A stretch of DNA of 18,267 nucleotides from Deltaproteobacteria bacterium (GCA_023954745.1 JAGSHC010000130.1:1-18267); one strand, 5' to 3'; shown: positions 5,201 through 17,781, numbered from the stretch's first letter. A program made the numbers and translations. Notes: a model not told the origin generated them from the sequence alone.

Positions 5201-7857
5201 GGGCGCGTGTTCACCGGGAACCGGTGCTTGCCGAACTTGATGAGGTTGGCGCCGTCCCCGTCGAAGAGCTCGAGGCGGTCACGCAGCCCGCGTAGGGCGT
5301 CCTGCCGCGCGGCCTGCAGGCGGGCCAGCAGCTCCTCGCCCTTCACGGCGTCGCCCAGAGAGGTCAGCTTGTCCCCGAGGTCCCGCAGCTTGAGCACCAT
5401 GGAGTCGCTGGCGAACCAGGCGTTCAGCTCGTCCTGGTCCTTGAACGTGCGCGCCCTGCGGGCCACGCCGCTGAGGATGCGCTCCGCCGCCTTCACCAGG
5501 CTGCCGATCCGCTTCTGCCGCTCGTCCACCAGCACCTGCTTGCGCGCGCCGAGGGCGAGCTCGATCTCCTCTCGCTTGCTCGCGAGCTGAGGCAGGAACT
5601 CGTCGAACTCGCCAAACCTCGCCTCGAGCTCCTCGAGCTGGAGCATCAGGCGGGAGAGCTGGTCGTCGCAGGCCTCGGGAGAGTCCGCGAGCGCCACCGC
5701 CGACGACACGGACTGGCCCAGAAGGCTCCACTGCGCTGCGAAGTCCGCCCGCGCCTCGTGCCCCGCGATCTCCTTGCGCTTGTTGGTGAGCACCGCGCGC
5801 ACCCGGTTCACCTGGCCGAACACCTCGCCGAGCCGCTCGAGGATGGCGGCGCGCGCGGTGGCGTCGTCGATCTCCAGACCGGAGACCACCTCGGTCATGA
5901 GCTCGAGGCCCGAAATGAGCTCCCCCTGCTTCTCGACGAGGGGCTTCATGTCCACGAGGCGCTCGACGGCTTCGATCTGGCCGTGCAGCTCCTCGATGCG
6001 CTTCGTGAGGGGAGTCAGGGCGTCGTCGCCGAGGAGAAACTCCACGGTGGCGCGAGAGATGCGCTCGAACTCGCCGGCGACCTCCTCTTCCATCCCGTCG
6101 ATGGCGGCGCGGTCGATGTACCGCACGTCCCGCATCGTGATGAGGTGCCCGCGCTGGGTCCTCAGGCCCGTGAGGGCCGCCATGAACTGCTCCGCCTCCA
6201 CCCAGGAGTCGGGGTGCAGGTCGTCCTTGAGGGTGCGCTGCTGCTCGCGCGCCTCGGTGAGGGCCGATTGCGCCTCGCGCTGGAGGATCTGCACCTTCTC
6301 GAACTCGTCGATGATGAGCTCGGCGACGTCGCGCACCTTCGCCAGGGGCGAGGCGAGGGCGATCTCGTCTTCGGAGAACCAGAAGTACGTGTCCAGCGCG
6401 CGCTGGCAGGCCGTCACCAGGGCCTCGTAGACCCCGCGACTCGGCTCCTGCTCCACCACCATGCGGCCCACGGTGAGGCAGTCCGACAGTCCGCGGACCA
6501 GCTCCTTGTTGCCGATGCGGGCCAACGCGCTGCCGTCGGTGGGGACCTGCGCGGCGTGCTCGGCGGAGACGAAGGGCGTGTCCCACACCTGCATGGGGTG
6601 GACGCGTGAGGGCTCGTCGGACGCGGCCCGGAACACCACCAGGCGGCCGTCGTCGAAGAGCGACCAGCCGTGGCAGCGAATGGGATTGCGCACCTCGCGC
6701 CGGATGAGGTTGTAGGGGAAGAGCACGTAGAGCCCGTCCCGGCGGCGGTTGAAGACGAACAGCACGTCCTCGCCGTTGGGCGACGCCACCTTGCGCAGGA
6801 AGCGCAGGTCCTCGTCGACGTCCGGGAAGACCTTGTACTCCCCCGTCTGGAGCACGTAGCCGCCGGGGAAGATGACGCCGTGGTCTTCGGGCAGCGCCAC
6901 GCAGCTGTCGCCGACGCTGTCGATGCGCAGGACGTGCTGGGTGCGGCGGTTGAAGACGAGGTGGCGGTAGCGGTCCTCCATGTAGGGGCGGATGCGCAGC
7001 AGCACCAGCGAGCCACGAATCGTGTAGAGGATGTGGGCGTCGTCGAGCGACTGGTTGGGGTCGTCCACGTCCTCGCGGTACACGCCGAGGCCGTCTTCGG
7101 TGTTGTCCTCGACCTTGATGGTGAGGTCCCCGCCGACCGTCTCCACGAACACGACGTCCTCCACGCTCACGTGGGGATGGCGCCCCAGGATGTGGTCGTC
7201 GCGCGAGGTCTCAGTCCACTCGAAGTCGTGGGTCGGCGGAGGCACGAAGGCCCGCTCGCCGCGGTCGTCGATGTACTCGATGTGCTCCGACGCATCGAGG
7301 CCCCACTGGAAGACCTTGACCGAGTCCTCGGACTCGCCGGTCTGGAAGACGGCCAGCAGCTTGCGGCCGTCGCTCCGAAGCGCCACCAGGCGCGTGTCGG
7401 AGTAGTACTGGTAGAGCTGGGTGAAGGCGCGCTGGAACTCCGCCCCGTGCAGGAAGGCCGCCTCCTCCGGGGACGCCGGGGTGAACTCCAGGAGCCCGTC
7501 CTCGCGTACCGAGAAGTGCTGGACGGAGAACACGTCGTCGATGGTGGTCGTCTTGCGGAGCCCGACGAACACGTTGTACCCGAAGAGCAAGAGCCCGCCG
7601 ACCTGCACGATGTCCACGGGAACGCAGTTGTTCTCCGTGCGCACGCGCTCGGTGCCGAGCACTCCAGCCTCAGTGCCTCCGAAGAGGGCCTGACGCTGCT
7701 CGTTGAGTGCCCGGGCGGCGTCCGCGAGCCCCCGCCCCTGGCCCGAGAGCCGCTGGCGGATGACTTCGTAGCTGCCTCCCGGTCCACCCTCAGCGGGAGA
7801 GCCCCCGGCGCTCTCTGTCCCGCCGGGGGTCTCCGTGGTGGCCGAAGCCTCAGGCAT
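2227..7857 (-). CDS. Giant (1876 aa) AAA_5/MoxR-like P-loop ATPase-containing protein; disordered N-terminus, probable beta-rich N-terminal region, long alpha-helical/coiled-coil regions, ATPase module near residues ~1310-1470
   Basis: Walker A 'VSPPGYGKTTLMEY' lies at ~3901-3940 on the minus strand. Walker B 'VMLYLDDIQH' lies at ~3711-3740. A sensor-like segment 'KFAVVMAGNPYTESGDRFQIPDMLANRA' is typical of AAA_5 (MoxR/McrB/dynein-related) ATPases. The ORF is one continuous 5.6-kb reading frame with high codon-3 GC. Its ATG at 7857 overlaps the flotillin stop as ATGCCTGA. Confidence 0.8.
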   Translation of the reverse strand: MPEASATTETPGGTESAGGSPAEGGPGGSYEVIRQRLSGQGRGLADAARALNEQRQALFGGTEAGVLGTERVRTENNCVPVDIVQVGGLLLFGYNVFVGLRKTTTIDDVFSVQHFSVREDGLLEFTPASPEEAAFLHGAEFQRAFTQLYQYYSDTRLVALRSDGRKLLAVFQTGESEDSVKVFQWGLDASEHIEYIDDRGERAFVPPPTHDFEWTETSRDDHILGRHPHVSVEDVVFVETVGGDLTIKVEDNTEDGLGVYREDVDDPNQSLDDAHILYTIRGSLVLLRIRPYMEDRYRHLVFNRRTQHVLRIDSVGDSCVALPEDHGVIFPGGYVLQTGEYKVFPDVDEDLRFLRKVASPNGEDVLFVFNRRRDGLYVLFPYNLIRREVRNPIRCHGWSLFDDGRLVVFRAASDEPSRVHPMQVWDTPFVSAEHAAQVPTDGSALARIGNKELVRGLSDCLTVGRMVVEQEPSRGVYEALVTACQRALDTYFWFSEDEIALASPLAKVRDVAELIIDEFEKVQILQREAQSALTEAREQQRTLKDDLHPDSWVEAEQFMAALTGLRTQRGHLITMRDVRYIDRAAIDGMEEEVAGEFERISRATVEFLLGDDALTPLTKRIEELHGQIEAVERLVDMKPLVEKQGELISGLELMTEVVSGLEIDDATARAAILERLGEVFGQVNRVRAVLTNKRKEIAGHEARADFAAQWSLLGQSVSSAVALADSPEACDDQLSRLMLQLEELEARFGEFDEFLPQLASKREEIELALGARKQVLVDERQKRIGSLVKAAERILSGVARRARTFKDQDELNAWFASDSMVLKLRDLGDKLTSLGDAVKGEELLARLQAARQDALRGLRDRLELFDGDGANLIKFGKHRFPVNTRPLELTMVPRDGAMALHLTGTDFYEVIEDPKVAAAQPFWEQALPSEGADVSRAEFLAASILFAAEAGQSGLTVSDLEDAVLEEQELMTLVREYAAERYDEGYERGVHDADAATLLRELLHLRGTAGLLRFPPRPRAAAMLFWAWSSDSDAKERWHRRARSFGRLRETLGATGGLADLAHELAGALGTMLAEAAPSLTLAASEAAMAGSYLVEELQAEHPRFCVSSEAQTLHDALVRHLEDHGGRRILEDDLAALDGLFEERLALVRAWTAAVFGRTAEDAQTRSGAEGEGLALETAARLLTESILEHEGSAALTSVTATGLLSQHRRIRDGVLELRLDEYLGRLSGWIGETVPAFAAWRTTRHAVLERERRRLRLDEYTPRVMSAFVRNKLINDVYLPIVGDNLAKQMGSAGDSRRTDQMGLLLLVSPPGYGKTTLMEYIASRLGLVFMKVNGPALGHDVTSLDPAEAPNATARQEVEKINLAFEMANNVMLYLDDIQHTHPELLQKFISLCDGTRRIEGVWKGRTRTYDLRGKKFAVVMAGNPYTESGDRFQIPDMLANRADTYNLGDILDGREEAFALSYVENSLTSNPVLQPLATREQSDVYKLVNLARGEEVPTSDLSHEYSTVELNEVTGVLRKLARVQEVVLAVNQQYISSAAQEDAFRTEPPFKLQGSYRNMNKLSEKIVPAMNDAELDALLRDHYIGEAQTLTTGAEANLLKLWEMLGTLTDEQRARWEDIRKEFRRSMLTGGGEDDPVARVTGALSGLDRQLEAIRETLVAGSTGDLEESLEEIGVRLGTLTEQVQRGANAIGHTAKAAVKSSEMQEALVAATEAAASASAAAAAKAPTVAGQGDLAMKLDVIVGELASELQGIRKGVQGTARGLADLNVLEFLAASPDAIRSNEDVAEVQREVLLQAQNALAGNLREIDPDDMTMRSPRSAVLAGSLPVIQDLFVKIGQLLGTVSLSQEEWASLMDQLRRHVAEAVTDLAQE

Positions 7858-9778
7858 CGCTGTTCGTCTCGTTCGAGCCGGTCGCCTTGTCGATCACCTT
7901 GCCGGCAATGGCCTTGAGGCCGCCGGGGACGTCGAAGTCGCCGTCGAGCATGTCGCCGAACATGTTCTGGAGCACCTCGGACTCGCCGGCCACGGCGTCG
8001 ATGCTCTGCCCGAGGCTCACCGCCTTGATGAACCGCTCGAAGAACTCTCCGTCGCCGCCCACGATCTTGATGTCCGCGGACTCCATCGCCGTGCCGAGCA
8101 CTGCGGCCTGGGCCTCGGCGATCTCCTTGCGCACGTCAAGCGCCTGCTGCTGGAGCTGCTTCATCGTGTCCAGCTTCAGGCGGAACTCCTCGTGCTGCCA
8201 ACCCTGACCCTCGAGGGCCTTCATGGCCTCGGCCTTCTCGTGGATGCCGGCTGCCTCGGCAGCGGCCTTTTCCTTGGCGACCAGGGCCTGGGACAGACCG
8301 AGCTTCTCTTCGCCTTCCGCCTGCGCCGACATCTTCTCGATGGTGACGCGGGCCTCGGCGAGGCCTTCCTTCTCCAGGGCGATGGCGTTGGCCTCCTTGA
8401 CCCGCGCGATGGCGAGACCGGAAGCGGCTTCCTGCGCCTGGGTACCCTCGGCCAGGCGAATCTTCGCCTTCGCCTCGATGTCCGCAGCCTTGAGCTCGGC
8501 CTCGGCGAGCACGACGCGCTCCTTGGCCTGGAACTCCGCCGCCCTCTCCTGGGCCTCGGCAGCCTTGATGCTCATGATGAGCGACTCCTGGGCCGACGCC
8601 TCGGCGTCGATGACCTTCACGTCCGCGTGGCGCTTCGCCTCGGAGTTCACCCGCAGGTCCTTGATGCGCTCCTCCTCCTCGGCCACCGACTTGTCGACGG
8701 CGATGCGGGTGCGGACGACCTCGGCGATCTCCTTCTTCTCCTTCTCGATCGCCTTCTCCTTGTTGATCCGCCCGAGCTCGACCTCGCGCTCGCGGTTGAT
8801 CTCTTCGAGCTGGCGGTCCTTCTCGACCTGCTCGCTCTTGATGGCGACCACGCGCTCGCGGTCCTTGTCGGCCACCTGCACCTGCCGGGTCTTGTTCAGC
8901 TCGGCGACCTCGATGGACTCGTCCGCCTTGATGCGGGCGGCCTCGGCGCGGTTGCGCTCCTCGGAGCGGACCTTCTCGGTCTCGGCGGCTTCGCGAGCGG
9001 CCACCGTGGCGACCTCGCGGTTCTTCTTGGCGAGGGCGTCGGCGTGGCGGCGCTCCTGCTCGAAGACCTTCTCGTCCGCGTCCACCTTGAGGCGGGTGAG
9101 CTCCATGCGCTCCGACTGGCGCCGCTCCTCCGTCTTGATGTTCTGGTCCGTGGTGATCTCCGTGATCTTGCGGATGCCCTGGGCGTCGAGGATGTTCGAC
9201 GGGTCCAGGGAGCTCAGGGGCGTCTGCTCGAGGTAATCGATGGCCGCGTCGTCGAGCACGTACCCGTTCAGGTCGGTGCCGATGACTTCGATGATGCGGT
9301 CCTTGAACTCGTTCCGCATGGTGAAGAGCTGCTCGAACTCGAGCGACTTACCGACGGTCTTGAGCGCCTCGGAGAACTTCGCGACGAAGAGCTCCTCGAG
9401 CACGTCCTGACGGCTCGCACGGTCGCAGCCGAGGGCCTGGGCCACCTTGAGCACGTCGTCCTCGGTCTTGTTGACCCGGACGAAGAAGGTGACCTTGATG
9501 TCGGCGCGGATGTTGTCCTGGCAGATGAGCCCTTCAGCTCCGCGCCGGTCGAGCTCGACCGTCTTGACCGAGATGTCCATGACCTCAGCGCGGTAGATGA
9601 TGGGGAGGACGATGCCGCCCGTGAAGGAGACGACCGGCTCACCCTGCACCTTGTTGATGATGAGGGCTCGACCCTGGTCGACCTTGCGGTAGAAGCGCGT
9701 CACCAGGACCAGGAAGCCCACCACGATCAGCGCGAGGACCAGGATGGCGCCGGCGACGGCGAGTGCGGATTGGGTCAT
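7850..9778 (-). CDS. Flotillin-like SPFH/band-7 protein (YqiK/FloT family)
   Basis: N-terminal TM helix 'LAVAGAILVLALIVVGFLVLV'. SPFH core 'FYRKVDQGRALIINKVQGEPVVSFTGGIVLPIIYRAEVMDISVKTVEL...ICQDNIRADIKVTFFVRV' matches flotillin/YqiK conservation. It is followed by a >300 aa Glu/Ala-rich coiled coil and a C-terminal flotillin-type tail. ATG at 9778 has AAGGGG ~12 nt upstream. Confidence 0.9.
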   Translation of the reverse strand: MTQSALAVAGAILVLALIVVGFLVLVTRFYRKVDQGRALIINKVQGEPVVSFTGGIVLPIIYRAEVMDISVKTVELDRRGAEGLICQDNIRADIKVTFFVRVNKTEDDVLKVAQALGCDRASRQDVLEELFVAKFSEALKTVGKSLEFEQLFTMRNEFKDRIIEVIGTDLNGYVLDDAAIDYLEQTPLSSLDPSNILDAQGIRKITEITTDQNIKTEERRQSERMELTRLKVDADEKVFEQERRHADALAKKNREVATVAAREAAETEKVRSEERNRAEAARIKADESIEVAELNKTRQVQVADKDRERVVAIKSEQVEKDRQLEEINREREVELGRINKEKAIEKEKKEIAEVVRTRIAVDKSVAEEEERIKDLRVNSEAKRHADVKVIDAEASAQESLIMSIKAAEAQERAAEFQAKERVVLAEAELKAADIEAKAKIRLAEGTQAQEAASGLAIARVKEANAIALEKEGLAEARVTIEKMSAQAEGEEKLGLSQALVAKEKAAAEAAGIHEKAEAMKALEGQGWQHEEFRLKLDTMKQLQQQALDVRKEIAEAQAAVLGTAMESADIKIVGGDGEFFERFIKAVSLGQSIDAVAGESEVLQNMFGDMLDGDFDVPGGLKAIAGKVIDKATGSNETNSDA

Positions 9779-9811
9779 TTTCTTCTGTACCCCTTGTTTC
9801 GTTGTGTGTGT

Positions 9812-9833
9812 CGGGCTTCTACGCGGAAGCCCG
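9812..9833 (-). other. Perfect 8-bp stem / 6-nt loop hairpin (CGGGCTTC-tacgcg-GAAGCCCG) in the 68-bp spacer between the YqiJ-like gene and the flotillin gene; adjacent (GT)4-5 microrepeat at 9803-9811
   Basis: Read directly: 9812-9819 is the exact reverse complement of 9826-9833. On the transcribed (minus) strand it is not followed by a U-tract, so it is more likely an intercistronic processing or stability element, or an attenuator, than an intrinsic terminator. Confidence 0.4.
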
Positions 9834-9846
9834 GGTTTCTATTGCC

Positions 9847-10764
9847 TTAGTTGCTCTGCTTTCGGCGCGCTGCGACGCGGGCCCTCACCCGGTCGATGGC
9901 CGCGAGGCGTGCTGCCTGCACGTCCCCCTCGGCTGCCTTGACGTCGAGCTTCTCGACGACAAACGCCTCCCCTTCCCGGTCCCACTGCACAAGCAGCGCC
10001 CGGTCCCCCTTGCTCAGCCCCTGCTCGGAGCGGTCGCGCACCTGCACGATGTTGTGATGGCCCGCCTCGGTGACCTCCGCCTGGCCGAAGGTCTTGGTGA
10101 CCTTGCCGGTGGTGATGGTCACGACGACGCCGATGAACGAGCGGTTGCCCCGTCCTCGTTCCGTGTGGAACAGCCCTCCCAGGGGGCGCACCGCGACCGA
10201 GGCTCCAAGAGTGCCCGCCGTGAAGGCGCTCAGCGCGATGGCGGCGCCGCTCAGAAGCTCCGGCACCGGCAGCAAGGGCGCCACGTGCACCGTCATCAGG
10301 AAGCTGGCGAGCCAGGAGAACAGGACGATGAACGACAAGCTCACCGTCAGGGGGACCGTGGTGAGCTTGAGGGTCGAGAGCATCACTGCGAGCAGACCCG
10401 GGCCGTGCCCGTCTACGTCCGCATCGGCGTCGAGGCCGTCCAACGCTGCATCTCCGGCCCCCTCGAACGCGCCGTCGATGCCGTCCAGCGCCCCGTCGAG
10501 GGCATCCAGCCCGGGGAATCCGTTCCCGTCGAGGGCGTCCAAACCGTCCAGACCGTCTAGACCGTCTAGCGCTCCGTCCAGGGCGCCATCCGCCGCGCCG
10601 TCGAGGCCTCCCTCGAGCGCTCCATCGGCGCCGTCGAGGGCGTCGAGGGCGTCCAGGTCCACCGCGCCGATCACGACGAAGACCCAATAGATCAGGGACA
10701 ACAGCAGGGGCACGGTGAAGATCACCGTCGGCAGGCTCAGAACCGTCGAGACAAAGTCGCCCAT
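9847..10764 (-). CDS. YqiJ/NfeD-like inner-membrane protein with C-terminal OB-fold (flotillin partner), carrying an ~85-aa (A/G)LDG acidic tandem repeat insert
   Basis: N-terminal TM 'LPTVIFTVPLLLSLIYWVFVVIGAV', central TM cluster 'LLAVMLSTLKLTTVPLTVSLSFIVLFSWLASFLMTV...AAIALSAFTAGTLGASV'. C-terminal NfeD-type OB fold 'GVVVTITTGKVTKTFGQAEVTEAGHHNIVQVRDRSEQGLSKGDRALLVQWDREGEAFVV'. ATG at 10764 has GAGGGAG 5 nt upstream. The gene sits immediately upstream of flotillin, as in yqiJ-yqiK / nfeD-flo operons. Confidence 0.75.
   Translation of the reverse strand: MGDFVSTVLSLPTVIFTVPLLLSLIYWVFVVIGAVDLDALDALDGADGALEGGLDGAADGALDGALDGLDGLDGLDALDGNGFPGLDALDGALDGIDGAFEGAGDAALDGLDADADVDGHGPGLLAVMLSTLKLTTVPLTVSLSFIVLFSWLASFLMTVHVAPLLPVPELLSGAAIALSAFTAGTLGASVAVRPLGGLFHTERGRGNRSFIGVVVTITTGKVTKTFGQAEVTEAGHHNIVQVRDRSEQGLSKGDRALLVQWDREGEAFVVEKLDVKAAEGDVQAARLAAIDRVRARVAARRKQSN
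10405..10665 (-). repeat. Imperfect in-frame tandem repeat (9-18 nt units, e.g. gccgtcgagggcgtccag / gaccgtctag) encoding ~25 copies of (A/G)-L-D-G within the YqiJ-like protein
   Basis: The protein segment is 'DLDALDALDGADGALEGGLDGAADGALDGALDGLDGLDGLDALDGNGFPGLDALDGALDGIDGAFEGAGDAALDGLDADADVDG'. The DNA shows the iterated units directly, e.g. 10541-10570 'ccgtccagaccgtctagaccgtctagcgct'. Confidence 0.8.
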
Positions 10765-10986
10765 CCCACTCCCTCGGGCGCGTCGCTTGCGCGGCGCCGC
10801 CCGCTCCTCCGGGGACCGGAGTATCGCCCATCAGCACCGTGCTTGGTAGCTCGCAGGCCCTCGTTCTTACGGGCGGCCGACCAGTTCATTGCTACTGACC
10901 GAACGGTCGAGTTAGGCGTTTTTATCGATCTAGTTCTGGACGTTTTGGTCTCTTTGGGCAATAACTTCCCTCGGAGGCAGAACGAA
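10765..10986. promoter_or_regulatory. Divergent intergenic region between the flotillin operon (-) and the SDR/PYP operon (+); contains an AT-richer stretch (~10910-10970) and the RBS GGAGG (10972-10976) for the ATG at 10987
   Basis: Codon-3 GC collapses in all frames. 'gcgtttttatcgatctagttctggacgttttggtctctttgggcaataactt' is the lowest-GC segment in the window. Both flanking genes start outward from this region. Confidence 0.5.
10897..10908. promoter_or_regulatory. 12-bp inverted repeat GACCG-AA-CGGTC in the divergent promoter region (candidate operator)
   Basis: Read directly: half-sites GACCG and CGGTC are exact reverse complements separated by AA. The site lies ~80 bp upstream of the SDR gene ATG. 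Confidence 0.25.
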
Positions 10987-12459
10987 ATGCGTGTGTTGGT
11001 CACAGGAGCTACTGGATTCGTCGGACGGGCTTTGGCCCTTCGTCTTCTCCGTGGCGGCCACGAGATCGTCGCCTGGACCCGCAACGAAGAGCGTGCGCGG
11101 GACCTCTTGGGACCTTCGGTCCTCCTGGCGAGCGACGCCTCCCCGGGACGCCTCGAAGAGGAGGTTGCCCTCGCCGATGCGGTGGTGAACCTCGCCGGAG
11201 AGAACCTCTTCTCCGGTCGCTGGACCGAAGCCACAAAGCAACGACTGGTGAACTCCCGGGTCGACCTGACCCGGCGGATCTCCACGGCCCTGGCCGCGTC
11301 CCCCCCGCGAGACCGGGTGCTGATCAGCTCGAGCGCGGTGGGTTTCTACGGAGCCCGAGGCGACAGCGAGCTCGACGAGACGTCTGCCCGCGGGGATGGC
11401 TTCCTCGCCGACCTCTGCGTCGCCTGGGAGCAGGCGGCCACCGCGGCTCGCACCGACTCCACCCGTGTCGCAATCCTCCGCACCGGCCTGGTCCTCGGCT
11501 CCGAAGGTGGAGCCCTCGCGCGCATGCTTCCGTTGTTCAGGGCCGGCCTCGGCGGTCGCCTCGGGCACGGTCGTCAGTGGATGTCCTGGATTCACCTGCA
11601 CGACCTCGTCGGTCTCATCATGCGGGCGCTCGATGACACCTCCTTCGAGGGGGTCTTCAACGCGACGGCTCCCGAGCCGGCGACCAACCGGGAGTTCACC
11701 CGCGCCCTCGCCGATGCTTTGGGCCGACCGGCGCTCCTTCCTGCGCCGGGCGTCGCGATGCGACTGGCTCTGGGCGAGGCGGCGGGGGTCCTCTTGACCG
11801 GGCAGCGCGTTCTGCCGCGACGGGGTGCGGCGGCGGGCGTGCGCTTCGCGTACCCGACCCTCTCCGACGCCTTTGCGCAGGTCCTCGATCAAGGCCGAAC
11901 CCCCACCATTCGGCGCGCCGACCGCGGCACGAAGCCCCTCGCGAACCGCCCAGCCGCGCAGTTCGTGCTCGAGCAGGAGACCCGGATCCAGGCCCCCCTG
12001 GTCGAGGTGTTCCCGTTCTTCAGCCGCGCCGCGAACCTCGCGCTGCTGACCCCCACCTGGACGGACTTCCGCATCCTCGAGCACCCCCAGGGCGAGACCC
12101 TGCAGGGCTCGAACATCGTCTACCGCCTCACCCTGTTCGGGGTGCCGATTCGGTGGAAGACCCTCATCGCGCAGTGGGAGCCCGGAGAGCGCTTCGTCGA
12201 CACCCAGCTCCGAGGGCCGTACCGCCTCTGGTGGCACGAGCATCACTTCGCCTCCACGCCCGACGGCGGTGTCCACATGGTGGACCGGGTGTCCTACACG
12301 GTCCCCCTCGGCCCTCTGGGGCGCGTGGCGAACTCCATCCTCGTCGCACCTCTGCTGAAGCGGATCTTCGCCTGGCGAGCCGAGGCAATCACTCTTCGCT
12401 TCAACCCCGACGCCCCCCGCCATGGTCGCTCGGACACCCAGAACCGGAGCGCCGCATGA
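10987..12459 (+). CDS. TIGR01777/YfcH-family NAD-binding epimerase (SDR-like, DUF1731-type) fused to a C-terminal SRPBCC (polyketide-cyclase/START-like) ligand-binding domain
   Basis: The Rossmann motif 'MRVLVTGATGFVGRALA' sits at the extreme N-terminus. 'LRTGLVLGSEGGALARMLPLFRAGLGGRLGHGRQWMSWIHLHDLVGLI' is typical of YfcH-like proteins. The C-terminal ~150 aa 'FVLEQETRIQAPLVEVFPFFSRAANLALLTPTW...RFVDTQLRGPYRLWWHEHHF' is SRPBCC-like. The in-frame upstream TTG at 10843 is rejected because codon-3 GC there is low and the Rossmann loop would not be N-terminal. Confidence 0.8.
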   Translation: MRVLVTGATGFVGRALALRLLRGGHEIVAWTRNEERARDLLGPSVLLASDASPGRLEEEVALADAVVNLAGENLFSGRWTEATKQRLVNSRVDLTRRISTALAASPPRDRVLISSSAVGFYGARGDSELDETSARGDGFLADLCVAWEQAATAARTDSTRVAILRTGLVLGSEGGALARMLPLFRAGLGGRLGHGRQWMSWIHLHDLVGLIMRALDDTSFEGVFNATAPEPATNREFTRALADALGRPALLPAPGVAMRLALGEAAGVLLTGQRVLPRRGAAAGVRFAYPTLSDAFAQVLDQGRTPTIRRADRGTKPLANRPAAQFVLEQETRIQAPLVEVFPFFSRAANLALLTPTWTDFRILEHPQGETLQGSNIVYRLTLFGVPIRWKTLIAQWEPGERFVDTQLRGPYRLWWHEHHFASTPDGGVHMVDRVSYTVPLGPLGRVANSILVAPLLKRIFAWRAEAITLRFNPDAPRHGRSDTQNRSAA

Positions 12460-13415
12460 CCCGTCCAGTCATCGCAGTGAGCGGCTGCATCGCCGGCGAG
12501 TCCGTGCGCTTCGACGGCGGCTTCGGCAAGGACGCGTTCCTGCTGAACCAGGTGGCCCCCTTCGCAGACCTCGTCACGTTCTGTCCCGAGGTGGAGGCAG
12601 GCATGGGGACTCCACGCAACACCATCCGCCTCGTGCGTGCAAGCAGGTCCGAAGAGACTCGAGTCATCCAGAACAAGACCGGTGACGACTGGACCGAGCG
12701 TCTGCGCGCCACGTCGAGAGAGATCGCCGCACGCCTCGCGGCCGCCAACCTCTCCGGAGTCGTGGTCCGTCGAAACTCCCCCACGTGCGGCCTGGAGCGA
12801 GTGCGGATCTACGACTGGAACGCAGTGCCCAGCAAGGAAGGCGTGGGCGTCTTCGTCCAGGCCCTGCGGGAGCGCTTCCCACTGCTGGCCATCGAGGAAG
12901 ACGGACGCCTTCGAGACGCTCGCATTCGCGAGGCGTTCTTCGAGCGGGTCTTCGCCCACGCCCGCCTGCGGGAGCTGCTCGACGCGGGCACCTGGCGCGC
13001 CAGAGACGTCGTCGCCTTTCACAGCCGCGAGAAGCTGCTCCTCCTCTCCCACAGCCCGAAGGTCTACCGGGAGATGGGCCGCCTCGTCGCCCGGGTGGGC
13101 TCCATGGAGCGCGCCCCATTCGCGGCGGCCTACGCCGAGCTCTTCTTGTCCGCCATGGCTGAGCCCGCGACCCCGGGCCGCCAGGTGAACACGCTCCAGC
13201 ACGCGGCGGGGTTCCTCAAGCGGGACAGCCTCCCGGCTGAGAAGGCGCGCCTCGCCAACATCATCTCCGATTACGCCGCGGGCTTGTTGCCCCTTGCTGT
13301 GCCCGTGGCCGTACTGCGCGCCGGGATTGCTCGTACCCAGCCCTCTTGGCTGAGCGCCCAATCCTGGCTCGCCCCCCACCCCAAGCAACTGAGACTGAGG
13401 ACATGGGTTCCATGA
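12456..13415 (+). CDS. DUF523 (TudS-like Fe-S thiouracil desulfidase fold) - DUF1722 (YbgA-like) fusion protein
   Basis: ATG 12456-12458 overlaps the upstream TGA 12457-12459 (ATGA). The N-terminus 'MTRPVIAVSGCIAGESVRFDGG' and 'VVRRNSPTCGLERVRIYD' match the DUF523 conserved Cys motifs. The C-terminal half, rich in 'FFERVFAHARLRELL...LLLLSHSPKVYREMGRLVA', is YbgA/DUF1722-like. Confidence 0.8.
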   Translation: MTRPVIAVSGCIAGESVRFDGGFGKDAFLLNQVAPFADLVTFCPEVEAGMGTPRNTIRLVRASRSEETRVIQNKTGDDWTERLRATSREIAARLAAANLSGVVVRRNSPTCGLERVRIYDWNAVPSKEGVGVFVQALRERFPLLAIEEDGRLRDARIREAFFERVFAHARLRELLDAGTWRARDVVAFHSREKLLLLSHSPKVYREMGRLVARVGSMERAPFAAAYAELFLSAMAEPATPGRQVNTLQHAAGFLKRDSLPAEKARLANIISDYAAGLLPLAVPVAVLRAGIARTQPSWLSAQSWLAPHPKQLRLRTWVP

Positions 13416-14044
13416 CTGAAAACTCCTTGATGACCACCCGCTCTGTCGCCGACCTCCTCGGCGTTGGCGTGAGCTCCGTGAAGCGCTGGACCGACGAGGG
13501 AAAGCTCACCTGTGTGCGGACCGCTGGAGGACATCGTCGCTTCGAGACGGTGGAAGTAGACCGCTTCCGGCGCGAGCAGTTTGCCCAGGACCGCGAGCGC
13601 AAGCCCTACCCGGCGGCGATGCTCGACATTGATGGCTATCGGCTGCCGGCCCCACTGCACGAGCTGACCGCCGCCGAGATCGACGCGCTGCCCTTCGGCG
13701 TGATCCAGCTGGACGATGACGGCATGGTCATCTTCTACAACAAGGCCGAGAGCAAGCTGTCGGGGCGGAGCGTCGAGGACTCGGTGGGACGTTCGTTCTT
13801 CACCGAGGTGGCGCCCTGCACCAACAACAGTCTGCTGCGTGGACGGTTCGAGGACGGCATCGCCATGAAGAACCTCGACTGCACCATCGACTACACGTTC
13901 ACCTATCGCATGCGTCCGACCCCCGTGCGCATGAGGCTGCGACGCGATGGTCCGTCCAAGACCAACTGGCTCATCGTGACTCCGCGAAAGGTCGGGGACC
14001 GAAAGAGCCCCGCAGGATCGCCCGGTCGGTTCGGACGGTCTTGA
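13412..14044 (+). CDS. HTH_17 (excisionase/MerR-type DNA-binding) - photoactive yellow protein (PYP) domain fusion, paralogue 1
   Basis: ATG 13412-13414 overlaps the upstream TGA 13413-13415 (ATGA), with GAGG 11 nt upstream. The HTH is '[34 protein letters not shown]'. The PYP core '[27 protein letters not shown]...[11 protein letters not shown]...DYTFTYRM' aligns with Halorhodospira PYP, with Tyr42, Glu46, Arg52, chromophore Cys69 ('VAPCT'), Phe96 and Tyr98 conserved. Alternative in-frame starts exist at 13403 and 13430. Confidence 0.8.
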
Positions 14045-14622
14045 CCCGCGCGGGGCGGACACCAACACTGCCTCTCGTGAACGACGACCTCATCACCACC
14101 CGCGCCGCGGCAGCCCTCTTGGGCGTCGGTACGACATCCATCAAACGGTGGGCTGACGACGGCACTCTTGTCTGTGTCCGCACTGCCGGGGGCCATCGGA
14201 GGTTCCGTCGGGGGGAGGTGCTTCGGCTCCTCAACTCCTCGGAGGAGGGACCGGGCTCCGAGAGCAAGGCCGACATCCACGAGCGCCTCCCCTCCATGAC
14301 GACGGGGCAGCTCGACACCCTCGACTTCGGAGTCGTCCAATTGGGCGACGATGGCCTGGTCCTGCAGTACAACGCCTTCGAGGAAGAGTTCGCTCACCTC
14401 CGACGTCAAGATGTGGCCGGCCTGAACTTCTTCACTCACGTGGCCCCCTGCACGAACAACAAGCTCCTCTACGGCCGATTCCGAGAAGGAGTCGCACGCG
14501 GGCTCTTCGACTTCACCATGGACTACACCTTCACCTACAAGATGCAGCCCCGGGTGGTGTCGCTCCACGTGTTCCGCCACTCGGGGACGAACACCAACTG
14601 GCTGCTCGTGAGGCCGCGCTAG
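14041..14622 (+). CDS. HTH_17 - photoactive yellow protein (PYP) domain fusion, paralogue 2
   Basis: The HTH '[33 protein letters not shown]' is ~65% identical to paralogue 1. The PYP core '[22 protein letters not shown]...[11 protein letters not shown]...DYTFTYKM' has Tyr42, Glu46 and Cys69 conserved, but Thr50 and Arg52 are replaced (A, L). The start is uncertain: TTG at 14041 overlaps the upstream stop (TTGA), and GTG at 14074 would give an N-terminus colinear with paralogue 1. Confidence 0.7.
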
Positions 14623-14624
14623 AG

Positions 14625-14843
14625 ATGGACTCCTCCTCCAACAACGGGGACATGGAAGCTCAGCTCGTCGCCCTGTACGAGGAGAAGGAGCTCCTGGAGC
14701 AGGAGTTGGGGATCTCCAGCGCCGACCTCCTCATCGCGATGGTGCGCAGCATGGAAGAACAGCTGATCGCGCTCTACACGGAGAAGGAGACCTCGTGGAG
14801 GTCCGCGACTTCGCCCGCCAGCTCCTCTTCGGAGAGTCGCTAA
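14625..14843 (+). CDS. Small acidic ORF (72 aa) with an internal direct repeat (MEAQLVALYEEKELLEQ / MEEQLIALYTEKE); possibly a separate micro-protein or the displaced N-terminus of the downstream gene
   Basis: ATG at 14625 lies 3 nt after the PYP-2 stop, with GAGG 11 nt upstream. Codon-3 GC is very high up to ~14793 in this frame. The coding signal then transfers to the -1 frame at ~14795, where the downstream ORF begins. Confidence 0.3.
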   Translation: MDSSSNNGDMEAQLVALYEEKELLEQELGISSADLLIAMVRSMEEQLIALYTEKETSWRSATSPASSSSESR

Positions 14844-16711
14844 GCGACAAGCTCGCGGCGCCGCCCGCTGGCACCCTCCGCGACGATGACCCCGGGCCTC
14901 CCATGGAGGCTCCGGACGCCCCAGGTCGCCCACCCCAGTTGGCGTTTCGTTCCGACCGCCCGCCGGTCCGCTTCCCGCACGCCTCCCGCCTTGGCGATCC
15001 GTCCGCGGCGGTCACCGCCCTGCACAGCTTCGCCAACCACGAGCTCCTCGCCCTCGAGTTGATGGCCCTCGCGCTGCTTCGCTTTCCCAGCGCTGACCCG
15101 CGCTTTCGTCGCGAGCTCATCGCGACCATGCGCGATGAGCAGCGGCATCTCGCGATGTACCTGGAGCGGATCGAGGAGCTCGGGGGGCGGTTCGGAGAGC
15201 ACGCCACGAGCCCCTTCTTCTGGGACTGCCTCGCCCACACGGACACCGTCGACGCGTTCGTCGCGGGGATGAGCTTGACCCTCGAGCAGGCAAACCTCGA
15301 CTTCGCCGTGGAGTACGCCGCCGCGTTCCGCGCGGTGGGCGACGAGCGCACGGCAGCCCTCCTGGAGCGGGTTCATCGCGAGGAGATCGCACACGTCGCG
15401 CGGGGGGTTCAGCACTTCAGCCGGGCACACCCCGACACCCCGCTCTGGGAGGCGTTCGTCCAGAGCTTGCCCGACCCTCTCACTCCGCGACGCGCCCGCG
15501 GGAACACTGTGGATCTCCCCTCTCGCAGCCGCGCGGGGCTCCCCGAGAGCTTCGTGCAGCACGTGCGCGTCTACGCCCACAGCAAGGGACGCCGGCCGAT
15601 TCTGTACGTGTGGAACCCCGCGTGTGAGGACGAGATCGCCAAGGGGCCTCACCACGCGCGCGCCGCCGTGGTGGCCGATCTCGAGCACGACTTGGAGACG
15701 CTGCCGCTGCTCCTGGCCAGCGAGGACGATGTCGTGCAGGTCAGCGAAGCCCCTGCCCTCTCCTGGTTGGCGACCCTCGCCGACGCGGGACTGCCGCTCC
15801 CTCGCTTCGCCACTCCCGAGGAGGCCGCAACCCTGGAGGTGGAGCGCGTGGCGCCCTGGGGCGTCAGCCCCGCCTTCCCCCAGTGGAGCGAGACGCTGCG
15901 GCCGGTCTTCGACAAGCGCTGGTCGGCGGACTGGCTGGGACGACTCCACGACGACCTCCAGAAGCGCTCCGGCGGTCGGCTGCTCCCCGGCGACGCTCTG
16001 CCCACCCTCGTGCATGACGCGGACGACGCCTGGCGACGCGCAAAGGCGCTTCGCAGCCGAGGCTTCCCCCACGTGGTCTTCAAGCAGGGGCTCGGAGCCA
16101 GCGGACGAGGGCAGCTGCGACTCCTCCACGAGCCCGAGCCGACGACCTCCCAGTGGGGGTGGCTACGCCGTCACGGTCCCAGCGGTCTGCGGGTGGAGCC
16201 GTGGCTGGAGCGGGAGGCGGACCTGTCGTTCCATTTCGACCTCGACGACGCCGGCCTGCACCCGCGCGGGGTCGTCTCCTTCACGACCGACCGAGGAGGG
16301 CGCTTTCTTGCAGCGCGGGTCGGCTCCCCCACCGCAGGACTGCCTGGCCCGGTGCGTCGATTCCTCGCTGGCGACGGCAAGGACACCCGATGGCTCGACC
16401 GGGTTCTCGCGGGCTTGGCCGCCCTCGCGGAGCCGCTCTGGGACGCTGGCCATCGCGGCCCCGTCGGCATCGATGCGATGGTCGCGCTGGACCCCCGTGA
16501 CGGACGCCGTGCGCTTCAACCCATGCTGGAGCTCAATCCGCGCTGGACGTTCGGACGCCTCGCGCTGCGGCTGAGAGGCCGAGGAGCGAGGAACGGGTGG
16601 CTCCGACTGGTCTCACCCGACGACGCACCGGGGCTGGTCGCCGCGGGAGCCGTCGCGCTCAACGACCCTCAGCGCGCCCGGCGGGTGGTCGCAGTCTGGG
16701 ACCGCGGGTAA
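14795..16711 (+). CDS. Ferritin-like diiron-motif domain (DUF455-like) fused to an ATP-grasp-like C-terminal domain
   Basis: GTG at 14795 has a strong SD 'AAGGAG' (14784-14789) and a 5-nt spacer. An alternative ATG is at 14903. The N-terminal half has paired E...ExxH motifs ('ANHELLALE', 'RDEQRHL', 'LEQANLDF', 'HREEIAHV') typical of ferritin-like/DUF455 proteins. The C-terminal half has ATP-grasp-like segments ('PHVVFKQGLGASGRGQLRL', 'GIDAMV', 'LELNPRWT' ExN motif). Confidence 0.65.
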   Translation: MEVRDFARQLLFGESLSDKLAAPPAGTLRDDDPGPPMEAPDAPGRPPQLAFRSDRPPVRFPHASRLGDPSAAVTALHSFANHELLALELMALALLRFPSADPRFRRELIATMRDEQRHLAMYLERIEELGGRFGEHATSPFFWDCLAHTDTVDAFVAGMSLTLEQANLDFAVEYAAAFRAVGDERTAALLERVHREEIAHVARGVQHFSRAHPDTPLWEAFVQSLPDPLTPRRARGNTVDLPSRSRAGLPESFVQHVRVYAHSKGRRPILYVWNPACEDEIAKGPHHARAAVVADLEHDLETLPLLLASEDDVVQVSEAPALSWLATLADAGLPLPRFATPEEAATLEVERVAPWGVSPAFPQWSETLRPVFDKRWSADWLGRLHDDLQKRSGGRLLPGDALPTLVHDADDAWRRAKALRSRGFPHVVFKQGLGASGRGQLRLLHEPEPTTSQWGWLRRHGPSGLRVEPWLEREADLSFHFDLDDAGLHPRGVVSFTTDRGGRFLAARVGSPTAGLPGPVRRFLAGDGKDTRWLDRVLAGLAALAEPLWDAGHRGPVGIDAMVALDPRDGRRALQPMLELNPRWTFGRLALRLRGRGARNGWLRLVSPDDAPGLVAAGAVALNDPQRARRVVAVWDRG

Positions 16712-16803
16712 GCGGACAGCCGGGGGCCGCTCAGTCCGGGAAGGCCTGGCAGAAGCCCGATGCCGCTGAAGCCACCTCCGCAGGCGTCGTTCGCCGCGAC
16801 GTC

Positions 16804-17781
16804 TCATGGCGCCGGTCCTCGCTCACCCGGAGCTGTGCCGGATGACTCGATGTCGAACAGACGCAGGATCTGATTGCGCCAGCTTGCAGGCGCGGCGATG
16901 ACGATACGATCCGTCTGCGCCACGGCGCGGCCATCGGGCAGAGACCCCACCACCACCCTCTCCTCTTCGCCGGTCTCACTGATCCACTCCACGGTGAGCC
17001 CTCCAGCCGCGAGGGCCTCTTCGGCCATCGGAGACAACGGCCGGGGCAGCACTTCCCCCCCTGGGACCGCAGTCAGGGACCAGCCCACCGCCTCCGCCAT
17101 GTCGCGGTCGGCGACGTCCAAGGACCTGCCGCTGCCGACGCGGTCCATCCACCATTTGGCGGGGCCAGCGCCAGGTTCGCGCACGAGAGTGCGGCGGTGG
17201 GTTCCGTCGTCTACGTGGAGGACAGCGGGGTCACCGACACAGAGAAGAGGCTCGGTGGGGTCGAGCCAATACTCCACGCGCGCGAGTTCGAGGGGGTCCT
17301 GTTCGAGGAGCAGCTCGCTCCAGAAGGCCGTCCGCTGCCCTTTGACCCGGACCGCTCGACGCCCGCGCACGAGGCGGTCTCCAAGAGCGACATGCAGAAG
17401 CCGGATGTCTCGGTCCCGATCGAATCCGACAGCCACCCTGTGGGGCCCAAGGCGCATGGCCTCGTCCCCCCGGACCGTCTCCACCTCCGCAGCGGCCTCC
17501 ACGAGCCTCAGCCCCTGGACCGCGTCGAAGAGCGCCCCCACTCTCCCCGCCGTGACGCGTCCCGCGGCACCCCGGTAGATCTCCCACCCCGCGTCGGAGC
17601 CCTCGCGACGCAGCCCCAAGGTGTGATCCCCCTGGGTGATCTCGATGAGTTGCACGCTCGCAGGCTCGAGGCGGAGGGTGTAGGGCGGATCTGCCGGGAC
17701 TGCGCCCCGCCACTGATCCAGCACCAGAAACGTCAGGATCGCTACAAGGACGACCACCGCAGCACGCACGAAGCGCCTCAC
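16804..17781 (-). CDS. Hypothetical membrane-anchored protein (N-terminal signal-anchor helix, extracytoplasmic domain)
   Basis: N-terminus 'MRRFVRAAVVVLVAILTFLVLDQW' looks like a signal-anchor. Codon-3 GC is high throughout. No catalytic motifs are recognised. It is convergent with the upstream + strand operon, with a 92-bp spacer. Confidence 0.55.
   Translation of the reverse strand: MRRFVRAAVVVLVAILTFLVLDQWRGAVPADPPYTLRLEPASVQLIEITQGDHTLGLRREGSDAGWEIYRGAAGRVTAGRVGALFDAVQGLRLVEAAAEVETVRGDEAMRLGPHRVAVGFDRDRDIRLLHVALGDRLVRGRRAVRVKGQRTAFWSELLLEQDPLELARVEYWLDPTEPLLCVGDPAVLHVDDGTHRRTLVREPGAGPAKWWMDRVGSGRSLDVADRDMAEAVGWSLTAVPGGEVLPRPLSPMAEEALAAGGLTVEWISETGEEERVVVGSLPDGRAVAQTDRIVIAAPASWRNQILRLFDIESSGTAPGERGPAP

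Follow-up and report, generated by a model that had tools for sequence, protein, structure and literature searches.

A gene cluster built around photoactive yellow protein (PYP) photoreceptors was analysed on an 18,267-nucleotide stretch of DNA from a Deltaproteobacteria bacterium (GCA_023954745.1, JAGSHC010000130.1:1-18267; G+C content 68%), the whole of which is called the window below. Its six plus-strand genes, named g1 to g6, occupy positions 10987-16711; loci that were compared carry L-numbers and protein clusters carry P-numbers. A preliminary description had placed six abutting or overlapping genes of one strand at exactly these coordinates, and reading of the sequence bore this out. 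The domain calls were upheld as well, the ATP-grasp call now through a confident fold model; for the SRPBCC call the matches are weak and below cutoff. The features are as follows.

10905-10965, plus strand: putative promoter/operator block upstream of g1, conserved in the window, L001 and L003.
10987-12459, plus strand: g1, a YfcH-type (TIGR01777) NAD(P)-dependent short-chain dehydrogenase/reductase (SDR) with DUF1731 and a possible SRPBCC-like C-terminal domain, 490 aa, by profile matches.
12456-13415, plus strand: g2, a RudS-type TudS(DUF523)-DUF1722 fusion, 319 aa, by matches to PF04463 and DUF1722.
13412-14044, plus strand: g3, an HTH_17 helix-turn-helix (HTH) domain (excisionase/BldC-like, MerR-type; ~13427-13579) followed by PYP (~13655-13978), 210 aa, by profile matches.
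14041-14622, plus strand: g4, HTH_17 (~14092-14238) followed by PYP (~14269-14613), 193 aa, or 181 aa from GTG 14077, by profile matches.
14625-14843, plus strand: g5, a small acidic helical protein, 72 aa, isoelectric point (pI) 4.1, made up of one PYP-associated repeat unit that has not been assigned to a family.
14795-16711, plus strand: g6, a DUF455 ferritin-like di-iron domain (~14906-15556) followed by an ATP-grasp ligase domain (~15557-16708), 638 aa.

The junctions were read directly from the sequence. The g1/g2 junction is ATGA (12456-12459), the g2/g3 junction is again ATGA (13412-13415) and the g3/g4 junction is TTGA (14041-14044). The g4 stop codon TAG (14620-14622) is separated by a 2-nt gap (14623-14624) from the ATG of g5 at 14625, and the GTG start of g6 at 14795, preceded by AAGGAG, lies inside g5, which ends at 14843, so that the two genes overlap by 49 nt (14795-14843). 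Because the gap between g3 and g4 measures 33-48 nt in relatives, g4 may start instead at GTG 14077; g5 may likewise start at ATG 14652 and g3 at ATG 13403, and all of these alternatives leave the tight packing intact. A divergent minus-strand cluster lies upstream of g1 and a convergent open reading frame (ORF) downstream of g6, and the unit is therefore bounded at ~10765-10986 and at 16711. The junctions, together with the lack of convincing internal promoter or terminator sites, agree with the earlier view that the genes are packed like a single transcription unit, and judging by their spacing alone g1 to g6 are probably co-transcribed.

The sensors of the cluster are g3 and g4, in which a MerR/excisionase-type HTH precedes a PYP domain. 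Both match the NCBIfam PYP profile TIGR02373 over profile positions 8-122, at 115 and 101 bits, and residues 77-191 of g4 align with residues 9-123 of Halorhodospira halophila PYP at E 6e-26. Tyr42, Glu46 and Cys69 are retained in both PYP domains (pocket strings Y-E-S-R...APCT in g3 and Y-E-A-L...APCT in g4), and R52 is present in g3. In fact, Y42, E46 and C69 (alignment columns Y109, E113 and C136) are invariant in 36 of 36 HTH-PYPs. The HTH domains matched HTH_17, MerR and MerR_1, as well as TIGR01764 at 38.8 and 34.5 bits, over the cutoff of 28.8. Against the PDB, the g4 HTH found 6amk/6ama, which we take to be BldC entries, and the cobalamin-binding regulator 8jbs, at about E 3e-7. The best non-PYP matches to g3 cover the HTH alone and have the HTH_17 plus B12-binding architecture of CarH/LitR, one of them being named a light-induced regulator. 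Since its HTH is closest to those of HTH_17 plus B12-binding regulators, the HTH-PYP looks like a swap of the sensor domain on a light-regulator chassis.

The HTH-PYP architecture was found in about 50 protein clusters, nearly all from Myxococcota metagenome-assembled genomes (MAGs), and g4 is the orthologue of the form that occurs across Myxococcota. When species-representative genomes were scanned with an HTH-PYP alignment, 20 full-length HTH-PYP loci came up, each of them from a MAG that is Myxococcota by name or context. The pI of g3 and g4 is 9.1-9.4, versus 4.1 for g5. The public annotation gives g3 as a "PAS domain-containing protein" of 141 aa (P0128, 100% identity, 67% coverage), from which the HTH is missing; this N-terminal domain is present in all relatives. 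Two surveys of PYP do not discuss the HTH-PYP architecture, which figures only as two unannotated entries in the supplement of the most recent one.

The small gene g5, which could pass for a mere filler ORF, turned out to be kept beside the PYP genes more consistently than any other partner. Its core, MEAQLvaLYeEKEllEqELGvSsAdlLIAMVRSMEEQLiaLYtEKE, conforms to a helical repeat unit of ~33-50 aa of the form MEAQLxxLYxEKExLxxELGxSDaxxIIxMVRS..., and no match to it was found in Pfam, NCBIfam, PADLOC or the PDB. A profile made from g5 and six close homologues was searched against 1.84 billion representative proteins. With a threshold of E<=1e-3 it matched 450 of them, and with E<=1e-10 still 236; 2-16 tandem copies of the unit are present in many. 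Among the 150 best members of the family, 45 consist of 3-16 units followed by a C-terminal domain that matches the PYP profile end to end. These fused PYP-fold domains have lost Cys69 in 44 of the 45 (mostly to Ser or Gly), Tyr42 in all 45 and Glu46 in 44. An AlphaFold2 model of such a pseudo-PYP domain, with a predicted local distance difference test score (pLDDT) above 90, had PYP as its best PDB match, with a template modelling (TM) score of 0.86-0.89. Pfam detected no other domain fused to the unit in the 10 proteins checked among the 13 with long non-repeat stretches. One fused form, P0267 (a Chthonomonadaceae cluster, 520 aa), keeps Cys69 (APCL) and lacks Tyr42 and Glu46; it has the top PYP-profile score among the fused forms, 120 bits, and possibly represents a stage on the way from true PYP to pseudo-PYP.

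The same unit was sought in six-frame translations of 80 PYP loci from species-representative genomes (1.15 Mb, E<=1e-5), made up of the 20 Myxococcota HTH-PYP loci and 60 loci of other phyla. It lies beside a PYP gene with Cys69 in 62 of the 80, adjoining HTH-PYP in 19 of the 20 Myxococcota loci and PYP in 43 of the 60 others. The distance from unit to PYP has a median of 287 bp and a maximum of 723 bp. All 119 unit hits fall within 3 kb of a PYP-like domain, although no more than 14% of the scanned sequence lies within 520 bp of one. The orientation varies, the unit being downstream, divergent upstream or upstream and co-directional, while the adjacency is kept. Loci with units come from Ignavibacteria/Kapaibacteria, Chloroflexota, Planctomycetota, Armatimonadota, Bdellovibrionota, cultured Leptospira (L045) and relatives of Salinibacter (the MAG loci L042 and L053). 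In Bacteroidota and Rhodothermota the typical order is a gene of 6-10 units ending in pseudo-PYP, then one or two true PYP genes. This arrangement, in which the array ends without the cysteine and the one or two PYP genes that follow carry Cys69, was seen in L040, L042, L043, L055, L060, L072 and L076; L042 and L060 hold two such sets each.

Because the adjacency persists in varying orientations and the unit is fused to PYP-fold domains exclusively, a partnership between g5 and PYP, physical or functional, was inferred, and g5 most likely contacts the PYP domain and not the HTH, since units accompany HTH-less PYPs too. The linkage is strong but clade-limited. A tblastn search with g5 of 72,556 plasmids gave no match, though 16 of them carry PYP. 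No description of a conserved small PYP partner was found in the open-access papers searched.

The rest of the cluster is less constant. The full set of six genes is present in L003, all but g1 in L001, and only g4, g5 and g6 in L004, L005, L009 and L013. Among the 20 HTH-PYP loci g6 occurs only in L009 and L013, which belong to the window's own lineage, and neither g1 nor g2 lies beside HTH-PYP in any of the 20. Since g5 is the near-constant neighbour and the other genes vary, the stable module is HTH-PYP plus g5, and the rest is lineage-specific cargo. Elsewhere (L017, L018, L019, L023, L026, L027) the HTH-PYP/g5 pair is found downstream of a gene for a ~990-aa TonB-dependent-receptor-like protein, read by eye, and ExbB- and ExbD-like genes lie near the pair in L015, L018 and L026, also read by eye with no family search; these neighbours may be other cargo of the same switch.

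RudS is described as a TudS-DUF1722 [4Fe-4S] desulfidase that strips UVA-sensitive 4-thiouridine (s4U) from tRNA, with cluster cysteines at positions 10-18, 43-50 and 104-115, and is often found in light-inducible operons under MerR/LitR regulators (PMC11417400). Both of its domains were recognised in g2, PF04463 (DUF523/TudS) at E 4e-34 and DUF1722 (PF08349) at E 1e-29, and Cys11, Cys43 and Cys111 fit the three-cysteine pattern. By sequence, g2 is thus a RudS, a predicted tRNA 4-thiouridine desulfidase. Apart from the window, just the two nearest relatives, L001 and L003, have this gene.

The product of g1 matches TIGR01777 at 330 bits (cutoff 207) and also DUF1731. Its C-terminus gives weak matches to Polyketide_cyc2 (E 4.5e-4, 21 bits, under the cutoff of 27.4) and to Polyketide_cyc (17.8 bits). 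The same part (window 11887-12456) weakly resembles, at E 0.055, the N-terminal part of 3oh8, a PDB entry described as a nucleoside-diphosphate sugar epimerase of the SulA family; that protein may combine SRPBCC and epimerase, the same two domains as g1 in reversed order. The gene is present in L003 and absent from L004, L009 and L013, and in L001 a 47-codon remnant of its SDR (MHTFMTGATGLVGRA...) persists at 7436-7580, between the promoter region and g2. It has therefore decayed there and is dispensable; by this decay and these absences g1 is an accessory gene.

The call of g6 as a diiron/ATP-grasp fusion was confirmed. Residues 38-254 match DUF455 (PF04305) at E 6e-43 (cutoff 34.3 bits), and the di-iron set E / ExxH / E / ExxH appears as NHELLALE, DEQRH, LEQ and EEIAH, nearly invariant in the alignment of homologues. 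By sequence, Pfam returned nothing for the ATP-grasp part and a PDB profile search reached only E 0.4 (7r8p). The C-terminal 384 residues were modelled by AlphaFold2 at pLDDT 94.4 and predicted TM-score 0.90, and Foldseek matched the model best to the ATP-grasp ligases 8ynd (E 6e-15), 7r8q and PGM1 3wvq, down to E 1e-13, with 551 PDB matches at E<=1e-3; the three-subdomain ATP-grasp fold was settled by this match of predicted structure. K120, K176, D306, E325, N327 and R329 of this domain are invariant in 52 homologues, and by analogy the Lys, Asp, Glu and Asn among them would be ATP and Mg2+ ligands. A DUF455 profile found no significant relative in the PDB (best E 0.16), and a search of the literature on DUF455 function found nothing useful. 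In all, 877 homologues of g6 were collected. Distant ones (40-49% identity) number in the hundreds, come from Gemmatimonadota, Verrucomicrobiota and others, and stand alone; no PYP lies near those of L006-L008, and g6 adjoins PYP only in the window's own lineage. Close relatives of g6 (54-67% identity) are on contigs that share the neighbourhood, and the 49-nt overlap with g5 is also present in L001, L003, L004 and L005. The overlap and the AAGGAG suggest translational coupling, which fits g6 as an output gene in this lineage, and it is possible that this output is light-regulated.

The genes for chromophore supply, tyrosine ammonia-lyase (TAL) and p-coumaroyl-CoA ligase (pCL), had been reported missing from the window, and this was confirmed by Pfam on the other large ORFs, by PROSITE-type signatures in six frames and by tblastn with reference proteins. 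That their absence is an anomaly was not supported. Among 113 predicted pyp operons TAL occurs in 5% and pCL in 32% (PMC12826048), and another survey of pyp neighbourhoods puts TAL at 10% or more and pCL at 30% or more (PMC9664959). Signatures and tblastn found neither gene within ~10 kb of HTH-PYP in any of 24 loci. TAL homologues are present in 13 of the 60 single-domain, non-proteobacterial PYP loci, with no recognisable pCL adjoining, and pCL was found only in the proteobacterial loci L089-L091, with TAL too in L089. The loci L036-L087, some with TAL and none with pCL, thus differ from the plasmid loci L089-L091, which have pCL and no g5 unit, and this suggests two separate styles of pyp neighbourhood. 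Because most pyp genes have no TAL or pCL alongside, their absence from an 18-kb contig says little. As the pocket residues are canonical, nothing calls for an alternative chromophore, and the default expectation from the sequence is p-coumarate made or acquired elsewhere in the genome.

Upstream of g1, the putative promoter/operator block holds GGTCGAGTTAGGC at 10905-10917 and, farther on, TGGACG (10937-10942) and AATAAC (10960-10965) separated by a 17-nt spacer; GGAGG at 10973-10977 is the likely ribosome-binding site of g1. A three-sequence alignment of the window with L001 and L003 shows TGGACGyTTTrGTC-N5-GGGCwATwmC to be kept ahead of the leading gene in each, and a repeated GGWCGnnTTnGnC-like element was noticed by eye. 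A consensus scan of 10600-17000, at its built-in thresholds, gave no sigma-70-like promoter site, and its 3 terminator-like hairpins, against 2.2 expected, are at chance level. In other lineages the intergenic regions of divergent g5 and HTH-PYP genes show no obvious common motif.

Divergent from the PYP cluster, on the minus strand at 2227-10764, lie a gene for a 1876-aa DUF3686, DUF7902 and AAA ATPase protein (2227-7857) and, upstream of it, two family-less genes (7850-9778 and 9847-10764); this DUF3686 cluster is syntenic in all of the close relatives (L001, L003, L004, L009 and L013). A PADLOC scan of g5, g6 and the DUF3686 cluster gave nothing meaningful, the kinase matches being generic. 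The minus-strand gene at 993-2126 encodes a Ser/Thr protein kinase that scores at about E 1e-51 with the PADLOC PD-T4-6/mad6 kinase models, probably through generic kinase similarity. In L001 and L003 a kinase gene lies directly downstream of g6 instead.

The explanation given a slight preference is a light-response gene cluster, probably one operon, organised around one-component HTH-PYP photoreceptor-transcription factors, with g5 as the PYP partner. It builds on the domain identities, the chromophore residues, the g5-PYP linkage across phyla, the fusion of the unit to pseudo-PYP and the ATP-grasp fold of g6. The earlier proposal of a light- and stress-related operon is credible in its light-response theme, carried by the two PYP-HTH fusions and RudS, and is not supported in its new chromophore route. 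As a mechanism, g3 and g4 would act as sensors in which a canonical PYP bears p-coumaric acid on Cys69, the chromophore being made or scavenged through genes elsewhere in the genome. The known conformational change of PYP includes release of its N-terminal cap. Blue light would isomerise the chromophore and release this cap, which in g3 and g4 would be the tether to the HTH, so that DNA binding or oligomerisation would be altered; light may also change the binding of PYP to g5. The switch would act on a DNA target in the promoter upstream of g1 and would control a cargo of g2, the RudS that removes UVA-sensitive s4U from tRNA, g1, the SDR-SRPBCC enzyme, and g6, the di-iron/ATP-grasp enzyme whose translation may be coupled to that of g5.

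Several observations weigh against this explanation. With 115 and 101 bits, the two PYP domains fall short of the NCBIfam equivalog cutoff, 143, and g4 lacks the equivalents of T50 and R52, having Ala50 and Leu52 instead. The unit was not found in 18 of the 80 PYP loci, nor in three proteobacterial pyp-pCL(-TAL) plasmid loci, so that g5 does not accompany PYP universally. When a natural segment of last unit and pseudo-PYP was modelled by AlphaFold2, the helical unit had a pLDDT of 50-74 and showed no packing interface; because the unit is only of low confidence, in contrast to the confident PAS part, no interface between the two can be claimed. The GGWCGnnTTnGnC-like element and the promoter-like block are too thin to define an operator. 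Furthermore, g1, g2 and g6 are not kept with HTH-PYP beyond the close lineage, and their tie to light is therefore circumstantial. Finally, the source organism is an uncultured MAG, as are the relatives with HTH-PYP clusters, the cultured exception among the loci being the Leptospira strain.

A wider proposal, offered tentatively and with somewhat less than an even chance of being right, is that the g5-type unit is the missing downstream transducer for a large part of the PYP family, binding PYP in a light-dependent manner. In Myxococcota the unit would gate the DNA binding of the HTH-PYP regulators; in Bacteroidota, Rhodothermota, Planctomycetota, Ignavibacteria, Leptospira and others it would act alone or as a multi-unit scaffold capped by pseudo-PYP. 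If so, PYP and the unit would form a photoreceptor-partner system of a new kind, and a compact optogenetic pair that occurs in nature.

The rival with the best claim, though an unlikely one, is that there is no functional unit at all, HTH-PYP and g5 being a self-contained sensor module and g1, g2 and g6 neighbours by descent that are not light-regulated. The make-up of the cluster does vary in close relatives, with g1 decayed in L001 and g1 to g3 absent from L004, L009 and L013; the HTH-PYP/g5 pair stands in unrelated contexts in other Myxococcota, for instance beside the TonB-dependent receptor; and all loci that have g6 have the divergent DUF3686 cluster in common too, a case of ordinary synteny. 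However, stop and start codons overlap and leave no space for promoters between the genes, the exact 49-nt g5/g6 overlap is kept at 55-67% protein identity, and RudS has been linked independently to light-controlled operons (PMC11417400).

That g5 is instead an assembly factor of holo-PYP, a chromophore-loading chaperone and not a signalling partner, is improbable. It would agree with the presence of units in sampled PYP loci without pCL and their absence from the three proteobacterial loci with pCL. Yet the units are most often fused to pseudo-PYP, which is without the loading residues and hence unloadable, and the unit is a helical repeat with no catalytic-looking conserved residues.

Very little credence is left for the idea, raised in the preliminary description, that in place of TAL and pCL it is g6 that provides both PYPs with an alternative or modified chromophore, by making or by attaching it. 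Its appeal lies in position and chemistry: g6 is immediately downstream of g5 and overlaps it, in an arrangement kept in seven related loci, hydroxylation and activation of an aromatic acid would in principle be within reach of an oxygenase-like di-iron domain joined to an ATP-dependent carboxylate ligase, and TAL and pCL are absent within ~10 kb of every HTH-PYP locus examined. ATP-grasp enzymes, however, form acyl-phosphates for amide or ester bonds, which differs from the CoA thioester route of PYP loading. Most of the 877 homologues of g6 stand alone, in phyla and settings where PYP is lacking, and 15 of 20 representative HTH-PYP loci from other Myxococcota (18 when L009 and L013, of the window's own lineage, are set apart) retain g5 and are without g6. 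The pocket residues of g3 and g4 are canonical, and absence of TAL and pCL is usual for pyp genes (PMC12826048; PMC9664959). On its phyletic distribution and gene context, g6 was rejected as a chromophore enzyme.

Hardly credible, and rejected on co-occurrence (g5 without g6 and g6 without g5), is a pair like those of ribosomally synthesised and post-translationally modified peptides, with g5 as a precursor on which the ATP-grasp domain (in the manner of graspetides or RimK) and the di-iron domain would act: an ATP-grasp gene whose closest structures are peptide ligases (8ynd, PGM1 3wvq) is indeed immediately preceded, and overlapped, by a short ORF that contains an internal repeat, but the g5 family is beside PYP without an ATP-grasp neighbour in at least 55 loci, the g6 homologues of L006-L008 have no small ORF partner, long tandem arrays of units fused to PYP-fold domains are unlike precursor peptides, and the C-terminal tail of g5 is simply what results when the region coding for the conserved N-terminus of g6 is read in another frame.

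For decades PYP has figured in textbooks as a photoreceptor, yet recent accounts still name its signalling chain as the main gap (PMC12826048; PMC9664959; bioRxiv 10.1101/2021.06.01.446672). Against this background, a natural PYP-HTH fusion implies direct transcriptional control by light through PYP, and a family-less small protein is brought forward whose genes adjoin PYP in most of the non-proteobacterial PYP loci examined and whose repeats are fused solely to PYP-fold domains. The PYPs of L. biflexa and S. ruber have reportedly been purified by others already, and they would be usable for binding work if those strains carry the unit. RudS, moreover, comes here under a probable light switch other than LitR, and the idea of a novel chromophore pathway is corrected as unsupported.

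Among known systems, the ATP-grasp peptide ligases (PGM1 3wvq; 8ynd of Streptomyces; SAOUHSC_02373 7r8q) share their fold with g6 at a TM score of ~0.6, but sequence identity is 14-16% and the g6 domain is fused to DUF455. With RudS enzymes g2 shares both domains, the three cluster cysteines and a place in a putative light-controlled operon, but the presumed regulator of g2 is HTH-PYP in place of LitR. The pyp-pCL-TAL operon of the H. halophila type, also present in L089 (Indioceanicola) and L090 (Caballeronia), has in common a PYP domain with Tyr42, Glu46 and Cys69; there pCL and TAL adjoin pyp, whereas the window has neither and its PYP is fused to an HTH, and the proteobacterial loci examined are without the g5 unit that the window cluster has.

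The sole published PYP partner is PBP (RCAP_rcc01067) of Rhodobacter capsulatus, which is encoded next to pyp, has 142 aa and a pI of 3.9, is predicted to have N-terminal helices and beta-sheets, and binds Rc-PYP light-dependently (bioRxiv 10.1101/2021.06.01.446672). g5 is likewise pyp-adjacent, small and very acidic (pI 4.1 versus 3.9), but it is an all-helical protein of 72 aa, the two being compared by description only. As a lead only, the layout of helices plus sheet in PBP resembles that of the unit plus pseudo-PYP proteins.

In Pseudomonas mendocina the short LOV protein PmSB-LOV and the class II LitR PmlR2 are encoded by adjacent genes, a blue-light PAS sensor working with a MerR-type regulator (PMC9758184); there sensor and regulator are two proteins, while g3 and g4 unite them in one chain and only the helical repeat stands apart. 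In CarH and LitR, the B12-dependent MerR-type photoreceptor regulators, the light sensor and an N-terminal MerR/HTH_17 domain likewise form one polypeptide; LitR-type regulators govern operons with RudS and photolyase (PMC11417400). Their sensor binds cobalamin, whereas that of g3 and g4 is PYP, a p-coumarate PAS domain. The cobalamin domain (PF02607/PF02310) was not found in g3 or g4, only PAS/PYP after the HTH, and HTH-PYP therefore would work like CarH/LitR and yet is not a member of that family. In conclusion, PYP, the MerR-type HTH, RudS and the di-iron and ATP-grasp domains are all parts of known kinds and the partner family is an undescribed one; unlike CarH/LitR, HTH-PYP has beside it a small helical partner's gene of its own.

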